A DNA stretch of 17,358 nucleotides from UHGV virus genome UHGV-0105864, one strand, 5' to 3'. Under the pieces are notes generated by a model. It did not search any database. It was not told the origin of the DNA and saw nothing but the letters and a program-made list of their open reading frames with translations. A program made the position numbers and the translations under genes. This stretch comes from a virus. Positions 50-15,363 of this stretch are shown one piece after another. The stretch's first letter is position 1. Each line of letters begins with the position of its first letter.

Positions 50-1228
50 ATGGCTATAAGCGACACAAAACTGCGTAGTATTTATGGTAAACCATATTCG
101 GGCCCACAAGAAGTGGCTGATGCCGATGGCCTCAGCGTACGAATTTCACCGAAGGGGGTCATCCAGTTCCAGTACCGCTATCGCTGGCATGGCAAGCCTA
201 ATCGACTTGGGCTTGGTCGATACCCATCCCTGTCTTTGAAGGATGCCAGACAGATCACTGCTGACTTGCGAAAGCTCTATTTCTCAGGAACGGATCCACG
301 CACTTATTTTGAAGAGAAGGTGGAGAACTCCATGACGGTCGCCCAGTGTCTCGACTACTGGTTCGACAACTACGTCTCTACAACTCTCAGAGAAAAGACC
401 CAGGCACTTTACCGATCAACGGTTATGAAGCGCATGCATGACGCCTTTCCTAATCGTCCGGCATCTTCTATCACGGTTAAGCAATGGGTTGACCTGCTTA
501 CCGAAGAAGAAAGAGATAATCCACGCCGAGCAAGGCAGGTGCTAAGTCAACTAAGATCAGCAATAAGTTGGTGCATGCGGCGTCAGTTGATAGATAGTTG
601 CGCAATTATGAGCATCCAACCAAGGGACTTCGGCTCCCGCGCTGAGGTAGGGGATCGGGTACTGTCGTATCACGAACTGGCTAAGATTTGGCTTGCTATT
701 GAAAGAAGCCGTGCGTCTACGTCAAATAAGCTACTTCATCAGATGCTTATGCTGTGGGGGGCGAGGCTCTCAGAGCTTAGGCTGGCAAAAAAGACAGAAT
801 TTGACCTGCTGGAAAACGTATGGACCGTACCGAAAGAGCATAGCAAGATGGGTAATGTTATCCGCCGTCCAATCTTCGAACAAATTAAGCCTTTCCTCGA
901 AAAGGCCATGACAACGTACAATGATGTTCTTTTCCCTGGAGAAGACATAAACAAACCGATCAGCATCGCTGCAGCCAACCGATTCGTAAATAGAATAAGG
1001 GGAGGGATGGATCTAGGTTACTGGCGAACACACGATTTCAGAAGAACGCTTGTTACACGTCTGTCCGAGATGAATGTCGAGCCTCATGTTACTGAGCGAA
1101 TGCTCGGTCATGAACTTGGCGGGATAATGTCCGTGTACAATAAACACGACTGGATAGAGGCTCAGCGCAAAGCGTATGAGCTTCACGCTGATAAATTGTT
1201 CTGGCACATCAGGAGCATTTCTGATTAA
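50..1228 (+). CDS. int: Phage integrase, tyrosine recombinase (P4-type)
   Basis: 392-aa ORF; N-terminal region and C-terminal catalytic region (HDFRRT, HELGG, final Y) resemble P4-family integrases; sits at the prophage end next to an excisionase. Confidence 0.9.
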   Translation: MAISDTKLRSIYGKPYSGPQEVADADGLSVRISPKGVIQFQYRYRWHGKPNRLGLGRYPSLSLKDARQITADLRKLYFSGTDPRTYFEEKVENSMTVAQCLDYWFDNYVSTTLREKTQALYRSTVMKRMHDAFPNRPASSITVKQWVDLLTEEERDNPRRARQVLSQLRSAISWCMRRQLIDSCAIMSIQPRDFGSRAEVGDRVLSYHELAKIWLAIERSRASTSNKLLHQMLMLWGARLSELRLAKKTEFDLLENVWTVPKEHSKMGNVIRRPIFEQIKPFLEKAMTTYNDVLFPGEDINKPISIAAANRFVNRIRGGMDLGYWRTHDFRRTLVTRLSEMNVEPHVTERMLGHELGGIMSVYNKHDWIEAQRKAYELHADKLFWHIRSISD

Positions 1229-1400
1229 CGCCACCGTTAAGAATCCACCCTTCAACAGCTTCACGAAGGTATGATTTGGGGTGGGTTCTGACTGGCTTCG
1301 GAAATCCGTGCCGTTTGGTATAGTTCCAGATTGTCTGACGTGATGAAACACCGAGCTTGTTCATCACTTCTTTCTCAGGAATCAGGCTGGTATCGGTCAT
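1209..1400 (-). CDS. xis: AlpA-family excisionase / DNA-binding regulator
   Basis: 63-aa ORF with winged-helix-like motif (LGVSSRQTIWNYTKRHGFPKP) typical of AlpA/Xis proteins; GGAG ribosome-binding site 9 nt upstream; 3' end overlaps int 3' end by 20 bp. Confidence 0.7.
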   Translation of the reverse strand: MTDTSLIPEKEVMNKLGVSSRQTIWNYTKRHGFPKPVRTHPKSYLREAVEGWILNGGVNQKCS

Positions 1401-2924: not shown

Positions 2925-3228
2925 TGGTTGCCTCCTTTGCTGGGCTTTCTAGCTTCTGAGTGGTTGTATCAAACTCAAACAACTTAACCACGTCATCAAA
3001 CAGGACATAATCGCCATCAGAATCTTCAGTCATGTCAGCGCCACAATCCTGACCGCACGAGTCACATCCATCCATATCAAGCTCGTATCGCTTCAGGTTT
3101 GCGATATTTGATAAATTCAGCGCCAGTACAGCCAGGTCATAAACCTCTTCGGCGGTATACCCTGCACCATGCCCATACATTTCAATGCGGGATATGATTT
3201 CTTCTACCCGTTGTTTTGTGATCGTCAT
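2911..3228 (-). CDS. Hypothetical acidic protein (105 aa) with a CxxC-containing, Asp/Glu-rich C-terminus
   Basis: ORF with GGGAGGTG ribosome-binding site; start overlaps upstream stop (ATGA); about 23% acidic residues. Confidence 0.6.
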   Translation of the reverse strand: MTITKQRVEEIISRIEMYGHGAGYTAEEVYDLAVLALNLSNIANLKRYELDMDGCDSCGQDCGADMTEDSDGDYVLFDDVVKLFEFDTTTQKLESPAKEATSEQD

Positions 3229-3686
3229 TTTTGCTCACCTCCCTGTTCTTCCAGAAAAATACGCATAGCCTCAAGCATCTCTTCGGTGTCATACGGAGAC
3301 AGCTTGTCACGCAGGATGTGTTCAATGCTGTTAATGAACTTTCGGATTGCTTTGCGTTCAATTTCAGTCAGGAAAGCATCGGTGGCTGGGGTGTCTGATT
3401 GCAGAGACTTTGCGCGATAGTCATTCCACCCTCTTGCATACATGGGATTAACTTGCACTCCATCTTTTACGCAATATGCCTGCCCTCCACGGTTGATAAC
3501 CTTGATTTCGTCCATAGCGCCAGACTTCAGCCCCGCATTCTCCGCTGCCAGCGCCGCGTACTTGGCCTCCGCTTCAGCAAATTTACGCACCAGATATTCA
3601 GCGTTTGTTTCGTTAACCTTTAAATCTCGTGGGATGCATTTACCTTTCAGAAATCCATCCATCTCAATTAGTGACATTTGTTTCAT
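3225..3686 (-). CDS. Hypothetical phage protein (153 aa)
   Basis: ORF in the translationally coupled early-left operon; start overlaps upstream stop. Confidence 0.6.
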
Positions 3687-3847
3687 TTCTTCCCACTCCG
3701 CAACATCGCATTCAGATATTTGTTTTGATTCACTGATGGAAAAGAATTTCTCTTAAGCAATTCCTCTCTCGATGGCATTGGCTTTACTCGTTGGCGAATA
3801 ATCATTTCTGCCGGAAGAATGCCGGGATTGTATGCAAGTCCTCTCAT
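3683..3847 (-). CDS. Hypothetical small protein (54 aa)
   Basis: Found by manual translation (below track threshold); ATG at 3847; stop overlaps start of the next gene (ATGA). Confidence 0.35.
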
Positions 3848-3863
3848 GGTAAATTCCTCTTTG

Positions 3864-4178
3864 TTAATTTATTCGTATGCCTGCTCTTTCTTCATCGAGT
3901 TTTTTTAGCTTGTATCGCATAGCCCTTACTGAATAAATTGAGCGGCAGGTTGCAATTGCTATTTCTTCTGCGGAGAACTTACCGAAAAGTGATACTTCGG
4001 CTCTTGTCCATCGTCTTCCACGAAGTCGGCTAACAATGTCAGCGCCAATCCTTGTTGCTTTCGCCATTACTGCTTTTTCAGTCCTTTCCAGTTTTTCAGC
4101 GATAACTTCAACTGGCATTGTCGCCGCTACTTCGCGTAAGAAATCGACTTCCCATTTCTCCCATGGAGTCTTTTTCAT
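3864..4178 (-). CDS. Hypothetical protein (104 aa) with two tandem ~40-aa repeats resembling helix-turn-helix units
   Basis: Internal repeat visible by eye: [32 protein letters not shown] and [31 protein letters not shown]. Confidence 0.55.
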
Positions 4179-4189
4179 AGGCGATACCG

Positions 4190-4672
4190 TTATTTGATAA
4201 GAAGTGAAGGTTTCCCAACTTTGAGTTTAGCGCCGGGAATATTTATTCCTGCTTTTAGTTGGTGTTTGATTGCCAGTTTGTCGGCTTTAATTGTCGTTTC
4301 AAACTCAACGTATTCAGGAGGAAGGGCGCTTGAGTCGATTATTTCTACAATTTCTGACGGTTTGCGGATTGTTACCTGGTGAATACCTGCTCGAATATTT
4401 TTCTTGCCAGCCATTTCAAGCGATGACGCTATATATGATTTGATGCTGTCAATCTTATTTTGAATTACTGCAGCTCGCTCATTCAGTGACTTTGCCTCTT
4501 CCTTGAGGCGTTCGGCATAACCAGATTCATTTTTAATGACGGAAAGAAGTTGCTCTATTTTATCGGTAAATTCTCCTTCCATGCCTTCTATTGTGTCAGC
4601 AATCATCTCTGGTTCTAAATCTGAATCCATCAATTTTGCGTATTCATTGGCAATTTCATACAGTTTGCTCAC
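4190..4672 (-). CDS. Gp157-like protein (siphovirus Gp157 family, tentative), RecT-associated
   Basis: About 160 aa, immediately downstream of recT with overlap; likely GTG start at 4672 with GGAGG 6 nt upstream (track TTG at 4678 is too close to the ribosome-binding site); family assignment is from recall. Confidence 0.55.
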   Translation of the reverse strand: MSKLYEIANEYAKLMDSDLEPEMIADTIEGMEGEFTDKIEQLLSVIKNESGYAERLKEEAKSLNERAAVIQNKIDSIKSYIASSLEMAGKKNIRAGIHQVTIRKPSEIVEIIDSSALPPEYVEFETTIKADKLAIKHQLKAGINIPGAKLKVGKPSLLIK

Positions 4673-5567
4673 TGGCAACCTCCAGTTTCGCTTTGCATTC
4701 TGCGTAAATGGCTTGTACGTTCTGCTGCAATTTCATCCCAGATGTCAGGCGATATGCTTCTGCAAAATATCGCTTCAAATCATCCATGTTTTCAGCCTGA
4801 GCCATTTCATCACAAAGAAGTTGTGCTTTATCCGTTATTTCCTGCTGGCGTTTCCGTTCATCTTCGCGGATATCTTCCTCTGATTTGTGCGGCATAACTG
4901 GTTCAGTCCACACACCTTCTTCTTCGTTTAGTACGTGAATAGCACTATCAAGACGTGATGCCTTAGGCCAATACTTGCTTGCACGCTTTACGACCGTCTT
5001 TCGCGCCATCTCATTCCAGTGATTTACCCATGGTCCTTTATCGCTGAATGCTGCCTTGCTTGTTTTCCTTACAGCCTCAATTTCAGCCAGACTCATCTCT
5101 TCCGTTAGATAATCACCTGCTGGCGTCTTAACTGTGCAGTAAACGCCAACAATATCACCACGATCACCGAAGGCGTTGTATTTATGGGTTGGTGCTTTAT
5201 CAAGCCCGTTTGACTCATAGGTATCGTTAGCATGAACAAGTTTTGCCTGACCCCATGAGATAACACCAGACTCCATTGCAATATGGAGCAATCCCATATA
5301 ACTGATATCAAGGCACACCATGCCGTCGCGCGGAACCAGATAAGCCAGTTTGCTAGCCGGGTTTAAGGTGATACCGATCGCCGCAACATTGATGATGGCG
5401 TTCTGTGCGCTGGTTGGATTTGCCAGTGCTGTTTTAGCCAGGTAATCATTTTTCTGGAAATACTGAATTGCAAACTGGCTTTCCTTAGCCCATGTCACCG
5501 TCTGTTCAGTCAATGCTCCGCAGAATAACTGCTCTTGCTGTTTAACGAATTCAACGATATTGCTCAT
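4656..5567 (-). CDS. recT: RecT-family single-strand annealing recombinase
   Basis: 303-aa ORF; GPWVNHWNEMARKTVVKRASKYWP matches the conserved RecT region; GGAG ribosome-binding site; start overlaps upstream stop. Confidence 0.85.
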   Translation of the reverse strand: MSNIVEFVKQQEQLFCGALTEQTVTWAKESQFAIQYFQKNDYLAKTALANPTSAQNAIINVAAIGITLNPASKLAYLVPRDGMVCLDISYMGLLHIAMESGVISWGQAKLVHANDTYESNGLDKAPTHKYNAFGDRGDIVGVYCTVKTPAGDYLTEEMSLAEIEAVRKTSKAAFSDKGPWVNHWNEMARKTVVKRASKYWPKASRLDSAIHVLNEEEGVWTEPVMPHKSEEDIREDERKRQQEITDKAQLLCDEMAQAENMDDLKRYFAEAYRLTSGMKLQQNVQAIYAECKAKLEVASEQTV

Positions 5568-5875
5568 GCTGCTTCTCCATAAACGTGTCTGCGTTTGAAT
5601 ATTGCGAAGGCATATTCAGCCTTAACTCTTTCGGTTATTGCATCCCAGAACCATTCAGCGGCTTTTTCCTGATAGTTACAGTCATAATCTTCCAGCCAGT
5701 CGATAGCGTCCTTAGTGTGTTCATCTGGTTTATATGAGCGAAGCATTTCGCTTATTGGGTCGCAACGTTTGCAGAGGCGATCAACTTCACTGTTGATTCG
5801 TTCGTAATCTTCATCAGTAAAACTTGCGATTATTTGCGATATTTCACGCTCATCTTTCAGAGTCAGAATCATCAT
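5564..5875 (-). CDS. Hypothetical protein (103 aa) at the position occupied by gam/abc in lambda/P22
   Basis: ORF directly upstream of and coupled to recT; no recognised motif. Confidence 0.55.
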   Translation of the reverse strand: MMILTLKDEREISQIIASFTDEDYERINSEVDRLCKRCDPISEMLRSYKPDEHTKDAIDWLEDYDCNYQEKAAEWFWDAITERVKAEYAFAIFKRRHVYGEAA

Positions 5876-5960
5876 CTTTCTCCTGTTCTTTGTGCTGATT
5901 GAGCATTTCTTTCATCTGACGAATGAATTCTTCGTCTGACCAGTTATCTGTAAAACTCAT
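5850..5960 (-). CDS. Hypothetical small acidic protein (36 aa), positional analogue of kil
   Basis: Manual translation; ATG overlaps stop of the cIII-like gene (ATGA coupling); overlaps the next ORF by 26 nt in another frame. Confidence 0.3.
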   Translation of the reverse strand: MSFTDNWSDEEFIRQMKEMLNQHKEQEKDDDSDSER

Positions 5961-6127
5961 GGACGGCCTTGTTGTTTCAAAATATCCCAAAGCTTTTCGA
6001 GCAAACTTTTCATTCTTGGTTGTTTAAAGTCTGCTCCGGTTAAAATATTTTTTCGTGAATGCTGTACCGATAAAATCGGGTTGAAAGGGCGAACCGATGC
6101 CGCCCCTGCAATAGCGAACTGTTGCAT
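5957..6127 (-). CDS. cIII: cIII-like protein (56 aa; putative FtsH inhibitor)
   Basis: MQQFAIAG... N-terminus and ...LWDILKQQGRP C-terminus resemble lambda CIII; AGGAG 7 nt upstream of ATG 6127; the track's longer start at 6178 lacks a ribosome-binding site. Confidence 0.5.
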   Translation of the reverse strand: MQQFAIAGAASVRPFNPILSVQHSRKNILTGADFKQPRMKSLLEKLWDILKQQGRP

Positions 6128-6209
6128 AGGATTCTCCTTCTGTTTGATTGCATAACGAAAATGCCTCTCGTGAAGCATTATTGGTATGCGGTAAAGCCGC
6201 GCTTGGCGG

Positions 6210-6458
6210 CTACTCTATTTCTTCTTCGAATGATTTTATTAGTCGGTCAATAACATCATCCGTTTCAATATCATTTCCGTCTGATTGCTTTAATACATCT
6301 ATTGATTCTGCAGCGGTAAATTCCATCGCTGTGAGAAACTCGACAATTGCACACTCAACGACATATCGTTCTTCATCTGTACGACATGAGATAAAAGAGC
6401 ATTTAATTGCTGTTATTACTTTTTGTTTAAGCTCTGCAGGGTAATCAGTTTTTATCAT
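6210..6458 (-). CDS. Hypothetical acidic protein (82 aa)
   Basis: ORF with GGAG 6 nt upstream of ATG 6458, immediately after a terminator hairpin. Confidence 0.55.
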   Translation of the reverse strand: MIKTDYPAELKQKVITAIKCSFISCRTDEERYVVECAIVEFLTAMEFTAAESIDVLKQSDGNDIETDDVIDRLIKSFEEEIE

Positions 6459-6615: not shown

Positions 6616-6643
6616 CCAAAAATAAAGGCCGACTATGAGGCCT
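6616..6643 (-). terminator. Intrinsic terminator (AGGCC-loop-GGCCT then UUUAUUUUUGG) on the - strand, at the end of the 6633-7256 gene
   Basis: Hairpin 6626-6643 overlapping the stop codon; T-rich run on the - strand (complement of 6616-6626). Confidence 0.55.
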
Positions 6644-7256
6644 CGGAAGGAAGTCCAATCATCTTATTCAAATCTTCTACCCGTAAAGCAGGAAGTGCTG
6701 TACTTGCTTTATCTGCTTCTTTTGGTAGCAACTCTTTGCTTTCAGGCCAAACCTCAATAAGTCGCTTAACTGTTGTGACTGAGTTTAAAGCAGCCCATAC
6801 ATTTGATTCGATATCCTTTTTCTTTGCTTCAAGTTTTTGTTGTAATGAGCAGATTTCATCAAACCTTTTTGTTATTTCGTGCTCTGCGTCAAACATGCAT
6901 TTATCTTTTATCGGAGTAGGGAGAAATATATCTTCGCCGTTGCCGTCTTTCCCATATGAATGCCATCCAACCCTTCTGCCAGATACAGTCAGATAAATTG
7001 AAGTAGAACGAAAATCGTATGAGTAAAATGAACATCCCATCTTTCCAAGTTCTTCACTTATAGCTACCAACTTGGATGATAACTGATCCACTTCCTCAGT
7101 TTTCTTTTTACCGCCAAACGCAATAACTCTGGCGTCAAGTGCAAGCTGGTTCTTTAACTTTGTTACTTCTTCAAGCTCAGTGAAAACCCCAGACTTAATT
7201 AAAGCGTTACGAGCGATTTCCTCTTTCATTCTCGTAGTTAAGCGGATTGATGACAT
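6633..7256 (-). CDS. Hypothetical protein (207 aa from ATG 7256), terminator-flanked moron-like gene at the lambda sieB/ea10 position
   Basis: Long ORF; GAGAGG ribosome-binding site 8 nt upstream of ATG 7256 (track start at 7271 is a TTG); hydrophilic with coiled-coil-like stretches; no recognised domain. Confidence 0.65.
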   Translation of the reverse strand: MSSIRLTTRMKEEIARNALIKSGVFTELEEVTKLKNQLALDARVIAFGGKKKTEEVDQLSSKLVAISEELGKMGCSFYSYDFRSTSIYLTVSGRRVGWHSYGKDGNGEDIFLPTPIKDKCMFDAEHEITKRFDEICSLQQKLEAKKKDIESNVWAALNSVTTVKRLIEVWPESKELLPKEADKASTALPALRVEDLNKMIGLPSEAS

Positions 7257-7269
7257 ATTAATTCCTCTC

Positions 7270-14714: not shown

Positions 14715-15004
14715 TGGCTAACCTACGCAAAGAAGCACGCGGCAGAGAATGCCAGGTACGTATTTACGGCGTATGCAATGGCAATCCTGAAACTACAGTT
14801 CTGGCACATTACCGGATGGCTGGAATTTGCGGAACGGGAATGAAACCTGACGACCTGATCGGTGCATGGGCTTGTAGCGCGTGTCACGATGAAATCGACC
14901 GACGTACCCATAACCTCGACAACAAAGACGCCAGACTTTACCACCTCGAAGGCGTGATCAGGACGCAGGCGATACTGCTGAGGGAGGGGAAGATTAAGCC
15001 ATGA
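14714..15004 (+). CDS. YbcO-like protein (DUF1364 family, putative nuclease; Cys-rich)
   Basis: 96-aa ORF MANLRKEARGRECQVRIYGVCNGNPETTVLAHYR...CSACHDEIDRR resembling DLP12 YbcO; directly upstream of rusA as in DLP12. Confidence 0.6.
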   Translation: MANLRKEARGRECQVRIYGVCNGNPETTVLAHYRMAGICGTGMKPDDLIGAWACSACHDEIDRRTHNLDNKDARLYHLEGVIRTQAILLREGKIKP

Positions 15005-15363
15005 ACGAATATCAGTTTGTGCTTCCATACCCGCCGTCGGTGAATACCTACTGGCGAAGACGGGGAAGCCAATACTACATCAGCGATAAAGGCCAGAAAT
15101 ACCGAAAAGATGTACAGCAAATAATCCGCCAACTCAAGTTAGACATTTTCACCAAATCACGACTCCGCATCAAAGTCATCGCAGACGTTCCAGACTACCG
15201 CCGCCGCGACCTCGATAACATCCTGAAAGGTTTACTCGATTCCCTTATCCACGCCGGATTTGCGGAAGACGACGAGCAATTCGATGACATTCGCGTAATT
15301 CGTGGTGTGAAAGTACCAGGCGGACGGCTTGGAATAAAAATCACCGAACTGGAGAACGTATGA
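15001..15363 (+). CDS. rusA: Holliday junction resolvase RusA
   Basis: 120-aa ORF with the RusA pattern (...PDYRRRDLDNILKGLLDSL...GGRLGIKITEL). Confidence 0.85.
   Translation: MNEYQFVLPYPPSVNTYWRRRGSQYYISDKGQKYRKDVQQIIRQLKLDIFTKSRLRIKVIADVPDYRRRDLDNILKGLLDSLIHAGFAEDDEQFDDIRVIRGVKVPGGRLGIKITELENV

Follow-up and report, generated by a model that had tools for sequence, protein, structure and literature searches.

How a RecT-type annealing protein can operate when no phage exonuclease is encoded beside it is the question raised by a four-gene cluster of the virus genome UHGV-0105864. The stretch of DNA analyzed, referred to here as the window, comprises 17,358 nucleotides (nt) of this genome and represents the early region of a lambdoid Escherichia coli prophage. 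An initial annotation, made from the letters alone, had placed four open reading frames (ORFs) in the cluster, encoding a 103-amino-acid (aa) protein, RecT, a Gp157-like protein, and a 104-aa protein. Each of the four was confirmed at its position on the minus strand, as listed here (CTD_G is our designation for the type of C-terminal tail found on this RecT).

5564-5875, minus strand: 103-aa ORF, matching phrog_3486
4656-5567, minus strand: recT, 303 aa, matching PF03837, TIGR00616, and phrog_148
4659-4880, minus strand: C-terminal ~74 residues of RecT (CTD_G)
4190-4672, minus strand: gp157 (Sipho_Gp157), 160 aa, matching PF05565 and phrog_253
3864-4178, minus strand: 104-aa ORF of the helix-turn-helix (HTH) type, matching phrog_11492 and phrog_323

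Taken together, the results make it probable that the cluster is a module of the nuclease-less type, in which an annealing protein is combined with an anti-RecBCD function, that it belongs to the functional class of phage P22 and the sequence type of phage HK140, and that Gp157 recruits RecT.

Content and conservation of the module

The junctions between the genes were examined together with the family assignment of RecT. The stop codon of the 103-aa gene and the start codon of recT overlap as ATGA, with GGAG in front; the 3′ end of recT runs 17 nt into gp157; and a gap of 11 nt separates gp157 from the 104-aa gene. By these junctions, the four genes would form a translationally coupled cluster. 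The start of gp157 was set at the GTG at 4672 because all homologues are 160 aa in length, with the TTG at 4678 as a possible alternative. RecT was found to score 112.4 bits against PF03837 (cutoff 24; E-value 2.7e-32), 82.4 bits against TIGR00616 (cutoff 52.65), and 1.8e-92 against phrog_148, while its score of 101.9 bits against NF007351, the equivalog model of Rac RecT, was below the cutoff of 296. On these scores, the protein is classed as a member of the RecT family and not as an orthologue of Rac RecT, and it is a predicted single-strand annealing protein (SAP).

No nuclease family was detected by profile searches in the minus-strand ORFs between 1200 and 7960, and the YqaJ, Exo, RecE, DUF3799, and DnaQ families were absent from every ORF of the leftward operon. 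Similarly, tblastn of λ Exo, the YqaJ protein, and RecE-type ExoVIII against the whole window gave no match. The view that none of the neighbors of recT is a nuclease of the λ Exo or RecE type was thus upheld and extended to the whole window. Profile searches of the three flanking genes returned phrog_3486 for 5564-5875, PF05565 and phrog_253 for 4190-4672, and phrog_11492 and phrog_323 for 3864-4178, with no exonuclease family among them. The nuclease-type genes of the window are YbcO and RusA only, both in the rightward operon. With no exonuclease gene adjacent to recT, the module does not belong to the two-component SynExo systems (annealing protein plus 5′-3′ exonuclease). Since neither the module nor the window holds a phage nuclease of this kind, RecT would have to rely on host functions or on a partner that is not a nuclease.

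Conservation of the module was determined at the level of DNA, bacterial genomes, and viral contigs. The 2.6-kb region 3600-6200 has 97-98% DNA identity to phages vB_EcoP-611R6, Gally, mEpX1, HK140, and Kapi1, and 265 of 5426 complete E. coli genomes hold it over 80% or more of its length. Of 80 viral contigs with RecT at least 97% identical to that of the window, 79 carried the 103-aa gene together with both Gp157 and the 104-aa gene; this contig scan, which was based on RecT alignment, reached near-identical copies only and informs on conservation, not diversity. The arrangement had been taken as unusual, a view that does not hold in light of the survey by Zheng, Casjens, Davidson, Amundsen & Smith (Zheng et al. 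2025, PMC12315714). According to that source, HK140 has an annealing protein of SAP type 4 plus MuGam, with no phage nuclease and no single-stranded DNA-binding protein (SSB); 84 of 246 lambdoid Rec modules are without a nuclease; and the P22 class, consisting of an anti-RecBCD function and an annealing protein only, comprises 46 phages. A RecT module without an exonuclease is, in other words, an already known, common, and catalogued type, and as a headline it changes nothing. What remains new is (i) the uncharacterised family of the 103-aa leader; and (ii) the predicted contact between RecT and Gp157.

Gp157 and the C-terminal tail of RecT

Gp157 was matched over the full length of PF05565 (129.1 bits, cutoff 28.6, E-value 2e-37), with its residues 5-162 aligned to profile positions 1-162 of 162, and to phrog_253 ('Mu Gam-like end protection') at 6e-54. 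The AlphaFold2 (AF2) model of the protein, derived from 23 sequences and with a predicted local distance difference test (pLDDT) score of 81, consists of a short helix, a very long helix at residues 21-87, and a small beta domain. Against the Pfam family of Mu Gam (PF07352), Gp157 reached 15.3 bits, below the cutoff of 28.3. This match is weak yet colinear over ~120 residues (40-161; E-value 0.019), and hhalign likewise placed Gp157 96-155, the beta domain, colinearly on Mu Gam 98-161 with an E-value of 0.046 and a probability of 1%. On these scores, Gp157 is not to be filed as a member of the Mu Gam family of Pfam. Mu Gam and Gp157 fall in separate PHROGs, phrog_491 and phrog_253, respectively, which carry the identical curated label 'Mu Gam-like end protection'. 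Homologues of Gp157 were detected by tblastn in 602 phage records, where RecT, Erf, or Sak4 genes are frequent neighbors, and a review of annealing proteins in Firmicutes names Mu gam-like and Sfi21 orf157-like genes as the usual neighbors of erf and sak4 (PMC8093625). MuGam is described as a binder of DNA ends that blocks all RecBCD activities, and the MuGam role of the HK140 homologue was assigned by sequence or structure prediction, not by experiment (PMC12315714). Gp157, and not the 103-aa protein, is the recognised anti-RecBCD candidate of the module and is presumed to bind double-stranded DNA ends and to block RecBCD; that it works like Mu Gam is the best-supported reading and derives largely from the published assignment.

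Whether Gp157 might itself be a disguised nuclease was also considered. A fold of the λ Exo or RecE type was ruled out by the AF2 model with its long helix and small beta domain, and a hidden nuclease was rejected as the beta domain spans ~70 residues and is without a PD-(D/E)XK motif. In BFVD, the model weakly matched proteins of actinophages that bear PD-(D/E)XK or RecB-like exonuclease annotations (for example, a 398-aa protein of Tsukamurella phage TIN4, E-value 3e-3, TMq 0.45), which may mean that a Gp157-like domain is fused to nucleases or may reflect the long helix only. A separate observation concerns locus L021 (3501-5138), where a gene of the 103-aa family precedes one for a RecE-like exonuclease (phrog_2489), Gp157 comes next, and an annealing protein was not detected; this would be a module of an exonuclease and an end-binder.

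The RecT proteins of the collected loci were aligned to define the core and the tails, and a conserved core (window residues ~1-217) was found to be followed by one of two unrelated tails of ~75 residues. The tail of the window type, CTD_G, was present in 24 phage records, and gp157 was the next gene in 10 of 10 distinct CTD_G modules, one of them with an Erf core. The modules read were those of the window type, HK639, three metagenomic or genomic loci, Pantoea PA-1, Klebsiella KO-TP1, Aeromonas phiA005, phage 15b, and Pantoea phage PdC23. In the last of these (L103, 2015-3590), CTD_G, at 59% identity, is fused to an Erf core with 78% identity to P22 Erf, and a gene for an HNH endonuclease is inserted between the Erf chimera and Gp157. 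Where a λ Exo homologue (79-87% identity) lies downstream, the RecT core was found to carry a tail of the λ Beta type in three of three cases, namely Cronobacter ENT47670, Erwinia Midgardsormr38, and one metagenomic contig. The cores encoded before these λ Exo homologues are 49-50% identical to the window core, and their tails are 51-75% identical to that of Beta (chimeric genes at L007 3809-4738, L008 3803-4735, and L020 339-1271). A fourth Beta-tailed RecT, with a core 70% and a tail 47% identical, is encoded on a contig that ends before the partner gene.

λ Exo is bound by the tail of λ Beta, as is SSB (Caldwell et al. 2019, PMC6393309). Because the type of tail co-varies with the partner gene, as the tail of Beta does with Exo, CTD_G is proposed to bind Gp157. 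The pattern suggests that CTD_G is a portable docking tail of RecT with Gp157 as its docking partner, and that an end-binding Gp157 would stand in for the exonuclease as partner and deliver the annealing protein to DNA ends. The swap of tails provides a simple rule for the partner that an annealing protein works with, and the complex of RecT and Gp157 that is predicted by this rule would explain how modules without a nuclease are targeted to DNA ends. The initial annotation had suggested that RecT works with a host nuclease or with a non-canonical partner; the co-variation of the tail with Gp157 lends support to the latter, but Gp157 is not the unknown partner that had been imagined, as it is already recognised as an anti-RecBCD candidate with Mu-Gam-like end protection.

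The flanking genes of the module and the leftward operon

The 103-aa protein matched nothing in Pfam, NCBIfam, or PADLOC (the last of which returned no defense system for any protein of the module), and its sole PHROG match was to phrog_3486, of unknown function, at 1.1e-57. The protein has a net charge of −9 and an isoelectric point (pI) of 4.7. Its AF2 model, based on five close sequences, is all helical and unreliable (pLDDT 51), with 0 matches in BFVD. A word-indexed search found close enterobacterial relatives only, and the single protein gave no match against genome contigs. When 1.84 billion representatives were searched exhaustively with the family profile, 53 proteins were found, nearly all of 97-110 aa and acidic throughout (net charge −4 to −14, median pI 4.64). 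A conserved C-terminal E-A/V-A of the family is the coding imprint of the GAGG ribosome-binding site and ATGA overlap of the next gene.

The genomic context of this family was read at 16 places, taken from annotated phages and from the contigs that encode the relatives. The next gene begins within 1-4 nt of the stop codon, with an overlap of 1 or 4 nt or by direct abutment, and it encodes (i) an annealing protein of the RecT or Beta type in 10 of the 16 contexts; (ii) an exonuclease of the RecE type in four, these being SEN22, phiEt88, a DUF3799 protein, and the phrog_2489 exonuclease followed by Gp157; and (iii) an EaE-like protein in one, with a Sak4/YfdP/DUF2303 cluster just upstream; the remaining context runs into the contig end. 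The single exception to the leader position is at L012 (1150-3806), where the gene closes a Sak4 (AAA_24)-YfdP-DUF2303 cluster on the distal side and does not precede an annealing-protein gene. The family hidden Markov model (HMM) revealed a relative also ahead of the Erf chimera gene in PdC23, as well as in PA-1. The modules led by this family have cores of the RecT, Beta, Erf, or RecE kind and come from Escherichia, Salmonella, Cronobacter, Erwinia, Pantoea, and relatives. Upstream lies usually cIII, with or without kil. As the family is flanked by cIII on one side and an annealing or nuclease gene on the other, it occupies the position of λ gam, and it does so also where the Exo is 80-87% identical to λ Exo. 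The placement agrees with that of Gam, next to and before the annealing-protein or nuclease gene of the PL operon, in 15 of 16 informative contexts. GamL, and not the 103-aa family, stands ahead of the homologous RecT-Gp157 pair of HK639 and KO-TP1, and none of Gam, GamL, or Abc2 was found at any locus that carries the family.

Position was not matched by sequence. Neither Gam (phrog_259) nor GamL (phrog_1050) was matched by the 103-aa protein in PHROG, and homology to λ Gam, HK639 GamL, P22 Abc2, P22 Arf, and HK75 Gp33 was rejected by BLASTP and hhalign, with hhalign giving the family a probability of 3.8% to λ Gam, 0.2% to GamL, and nothing to Abc2. The family profile returned noise only from PDB sequences (best E-value 0.016, to a designed repeat protein), and the MNAY motif that is common to the N termini of Gam and GamL is absent. 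The sole signal was a colinear local match of 33 residues between the family HMM and λ GamS, centered on DDDVEFQE in Gam and D-x-D-Y-Q-E in the 103-aa family, at a score of 10.4 bits that was reached by 2 of 2000 composition-matched shuffles. The 103-aa protein may, tentatively, be a Gam analogue or another modulator of host nucleases, and a role as an Arf-like recombinase cofactor or in anti-defense is also possible. As a conserved and coupled leader that occupies the gam slot in four or more kinds of Rec module, it provides a concrete candidate for a new modulator of RecBCD or host nucleases. Such modulators matter for recombineering tools and for defenses that sense RecBCD inhibition (retron Ec48, OLD, and Gabija).

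The 104-aa protein matched phrog_11492 (4.6e-23) and phrog_323 (2.8e-20), and its place in the latter is shared with P22 Abc1 (1.3e-23) and Mu gp9 (5.2e-29). The HTH signal was weak, at 20.7 bits for HTH_12 (cutoff 21.4) and an E-value of 0.005 to the NarL HTH in PDB. Two tandem HTH-like repeats had been read into this protein; they are supported at the profile level and by three-repeat relatives only, and the self-alignment was not significant, with nothing found by BLASTP between the two halves and a Smith-Waterman score of 21 that equals the shuffle mean. Comparison with Mu gp9 gave a BLASTP E-value of 5e-5 and an hhalign probability of 72%, whereas comparison with P22 Abc1 gave no BLASTP alignment and an hhalign probability of 24%; the annotators of the Gally genome label the homologue Abc1-like. 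SEN22 keeps the 104-aa gene and DUF2737, with ExoVIII and a 189-aa protein in place of RecT-Gp157. The 104-aa protein is a non-obligatory partner, as several other RecT-Gp157 modules are without the gene. We also observed that HTH proteins of phrog_323 adjoin three kinds of anti-RecBCD genes, Abc2, Mu Gam, and Gp157. Abc2 itself (PF11043 / phrog_656) had no match among the ORFs of the window.

At the proximal edge of the module, a 36-aa ORF shares 18 of its first 21 residues (86%) with HK75 Gp33 and has the SDEEFI motif in common with P22 Arf. In a July 2026 preprint, the 56-aa Gp33 of HK75 is reported to trigger the P2 OLD defense on its own and is proposed to be a new inhibitor or manipulator of RecBCD (bioRxiv 10.64898/2026.07.10.737580). 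The ORF of the window parts from Gp33 beyond residue 21, and 26 nt of it lie within the 103-aa gene; for these two reasons it may be a mosaic scar, a remnant or variant at this edge. The remaining features of the window were as follows.

50-1228, plus strand: integrase
1209-1400, minus strand: AlpA/Xis-type gene
From ~7957 down to ~1431, minus strand: leftward (PL) operon
3225-3686 and onward, minus strand: EaE/Ead-type genes, the first encoding a 153-aa EaE-like protein, phrog_614
3683-3847, minus strand: DUF2737 protein, 54 aa, 77% identical to P22 orf56
5850-5960, minus strand: 36-aa ORF
5957-6178, minus strand: cIII, phrog_550
6210-6458, minus strand: 82-aa protein of an anti-restriction family, phrog_14587
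6633-7271, minus strand: Nmad5-domain protein, 212 aa, PF18757 (nucleotide modification associated domain 5) at 7e-71
7293-7493, minus strand: ral
7751-7957, minus strand: N-like protein
8394-9044, minus strand: cI-type repressor
9125-9310, plus strand: cro
9332-9712, plus strand: cII
10010-12330: O- and DnaB-type replication genes
Following genes: nin region with NinB, NinE, NinX, YbcO, RusA, and NinH, then Q and a holin
13335-13745, plus strand: NinB/Orf recombination mediator
14714-15004, plus strand: YbcO, 96-aa putative nuclease
15001-15363, plus strand: RusA Holliday-junction resolvase, directly after YbcO

The module is bordered upstream by cIII, as in other lambdoid phages, and at its distal edge by the DUF2737 gene, likewise in P22, HK75, and SEN22. 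NinB, YbcO, and RusA are accessory recombination functions of the rightward operon and lie outside the Rec module. The N-proximal part of the PL operon, with ral, the Nmad5 protein, and the phrog_14587 protein, has the appearance of an anti-restriction or anti-defense island. A 138-aa ORF (7857-8273, plus strand) that lies between the N-like gene and cI in opposite orientation was without a family match; in other lambdoid phages, the slot between N and cI is the site of exclusion genes of the sieB/rex type. Chi sites numbered 0 in the window, which is uninformative as chance alone would give ~0.5 in 17 kb. With regard to the EaE-like gene at 3225-3686, a relationship of the OLD inhibitor Oad2 to P22 EaE is stated in the 2026 preprint (bioRxiv 10.64898/2026.07.10.737580).

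Proposed mechanism and comparison with named systems

We suggest that the module would act in the following manner. Gp157, being Mu-Gam-like, would bind the double-stranded ends of the phage DNA and hold RecBCD off; the CTD_G tail would dock on Gp157 and in so doing bring RecT to the ends, as the tail of λ Beta does on λ Exo. Single strands would be provided by the host and not by a phage exonuclease, whether through resection of the RecJ/RecQ type or from gaps at replication forks, and the complementary strands would then be annealed by RecT. NinB and RusA of the rightward operon may help in loading onto SSB-coated DNA and in resolving junctions. The 103-aa leader and the Abc1/Mu-gp9-like 104-aa protein would be accessory, with the former as the best candidate for a second, Gam-like modulator of host nucleases. 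Several points weigh against this mechanism. An end capped in a Ku-like manner is no obvious substrate for resection, and the source of single strands is therefore left unexplained. In addition, the co-variation of tail and partner is drawn from ~14 modules that are phylogenetically non-independent, and it could be mere linkage in mosaic exchange, since the CTD_G tail and gp157 adjoin and overlap.

The roles of the two small proteins can be assigned differently. The 103-aa protein could be the true RecBCD inhibitor, a diverged analogue of Gam, with Gp157 serving instead to load RecT or mediate its action; we hold this to be possible yet distinctly less likely than the mechanism above. It is favored by the place of the family as the first gene of the module in front of RecT, RecE-type, Beta-type, and Erf cores, by its standing in for gam in modules with λ Exo homologues and alternating with GamL in HK639 and KO-TP1, by the lack of Gam, GamL, and Abc2 at its loci, by its uniform acidity, and by the colinear match to λ GamS. 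This must be set against the low hhalign probability to Gam, the lack of a PHROG, Pfam, or PDB link, the missing MNAY motif, and a structural model that is unusable and without BFVD matches. Furthermore, the 103-aa protein co-occurs here with another anti-RecBCD candidate, Gp157, and the leader position alone also fits an Arf-like recombination cofactor or an anti-defense gene. The two ideas may also be joined, such that the 103-aa family would be a fifth class of lambdoid RecBCD modulators while Gp157 docks the annealing protein through the portable tail, a combination that we put forward as speculative; if true, modules that have been scored without an anti-RecBCD gene, such as that of SEN22, would have one.

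The likeness to P22 raises the further thought that the 104-aa or the 103-aa protein reprograms host RecBCD into the exonuclease of RecT, which appears improbable. P22 Erf indeed works with Abc1 and Abc2 and without a phage nuclease, the flanks of the module are as in P22 (the DUF2737 protein, the EaE-like gene, and an Arf-like N-terminal motif), and the 104-aa protein shares its PHROG and, in Gally, its label with Abc1. However, the component of P22 that binds RecC is Abc2, not Abc1, according to the survey (PMC12315714), and Abc2 is absent from the window; the similarity of the 104-aa protein to Abc1 does not extend to a BLASTP alignment; and an end-capping, Mu-Gam-like protein would block RecBCD and not recruit it. 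The least probable account, to which we give almost no credence, is that of a decayed remnant, in which a defective prophage would have lost the exonuclease, leaving RecT non-functional or orphaned. In its favor, the window represents a fragment of a prophage, and the 36-aa ORF resembles a truncated gene of the Gp33/Arf type at a mosaic joint. Nonetheless, decay was excluded because the architecture is conserved in plaque-forming phages and distant genera: it is identical in HK140, mEpX1, Kapi1, and Gally, which form plaques, and phages of Pantoea, Klebsiella, and Aeromonas have it with reading frames that are intact and overlap. All ORFs of the module are of full length compared with their homologues, and no close ancestor with an exonuclease gene between recT and gp157, or with the scars of its deletion, was seen. 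The best-supported reading is a two-component system without a nuclease, in which an end-binding, Mu-Gam-like Gp157 would protect the ends and probably recruit RecT.

In Mu, an HTH protein of phrog_323 likewise adjoins a Gam-type gene for end protection, with gp9 (5482-5781) immediately upstream of gam (5801-6325) in the Mu record (L022). The order is, however, reversed relative to the window, Mu Gam belongs to another PHROG and another Pfam family than Gp157, and Mu has no annealing protein. The Red system of λ (gam-bet-exo) occupies the same PL slot and also has a small acidic leader before an annealing protein with a separable, partner-binding tail, and some relatives of the window RecT core carry the Beta tail together with λ Exo; the window differs from it in the absence of Exo, in the type of tail, and in a leader without reliable similarity to Gam. 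With P22 (erf-abc1-abc2), the module shares the combination of an annealing protein and an anti-RecBCD function without a phage nuclease, the operon slot (cIII, then the module, then DUF2737/orf56 and EaE), and an Abc1-type HTH protein of phrog_323. The annealing protein is Erf in P22 and RecT here, the leader is Arf in P22 and a member of the 103-aa family here, and the RecC-binding Abc2 of P22 is absent here, where Gp157 is the end-binder candidate. In HK639 and KO-TP1, the genes stand in the same order, with 74% identity for the RecT core, ~51% for the tail, and 62-63% for Gp157, and the difference lies in a leader that is GamL (phrog_1050) and not of the 103-aa family. The published HK140 module consists of RecT and MuGam only, and the main text of Zheng et al. 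2025 (PMC12315714), in the part at hand, is silent on the 103-aa and 104-aa genes. HK140 and mEpX1 agree with the window in gene content and order (103-aa ORF, RecT, Gp157/MuGam-like, and 104-aa ORF) at ~97% identity, and they differ from it in essentially nothing within 3864-5875.

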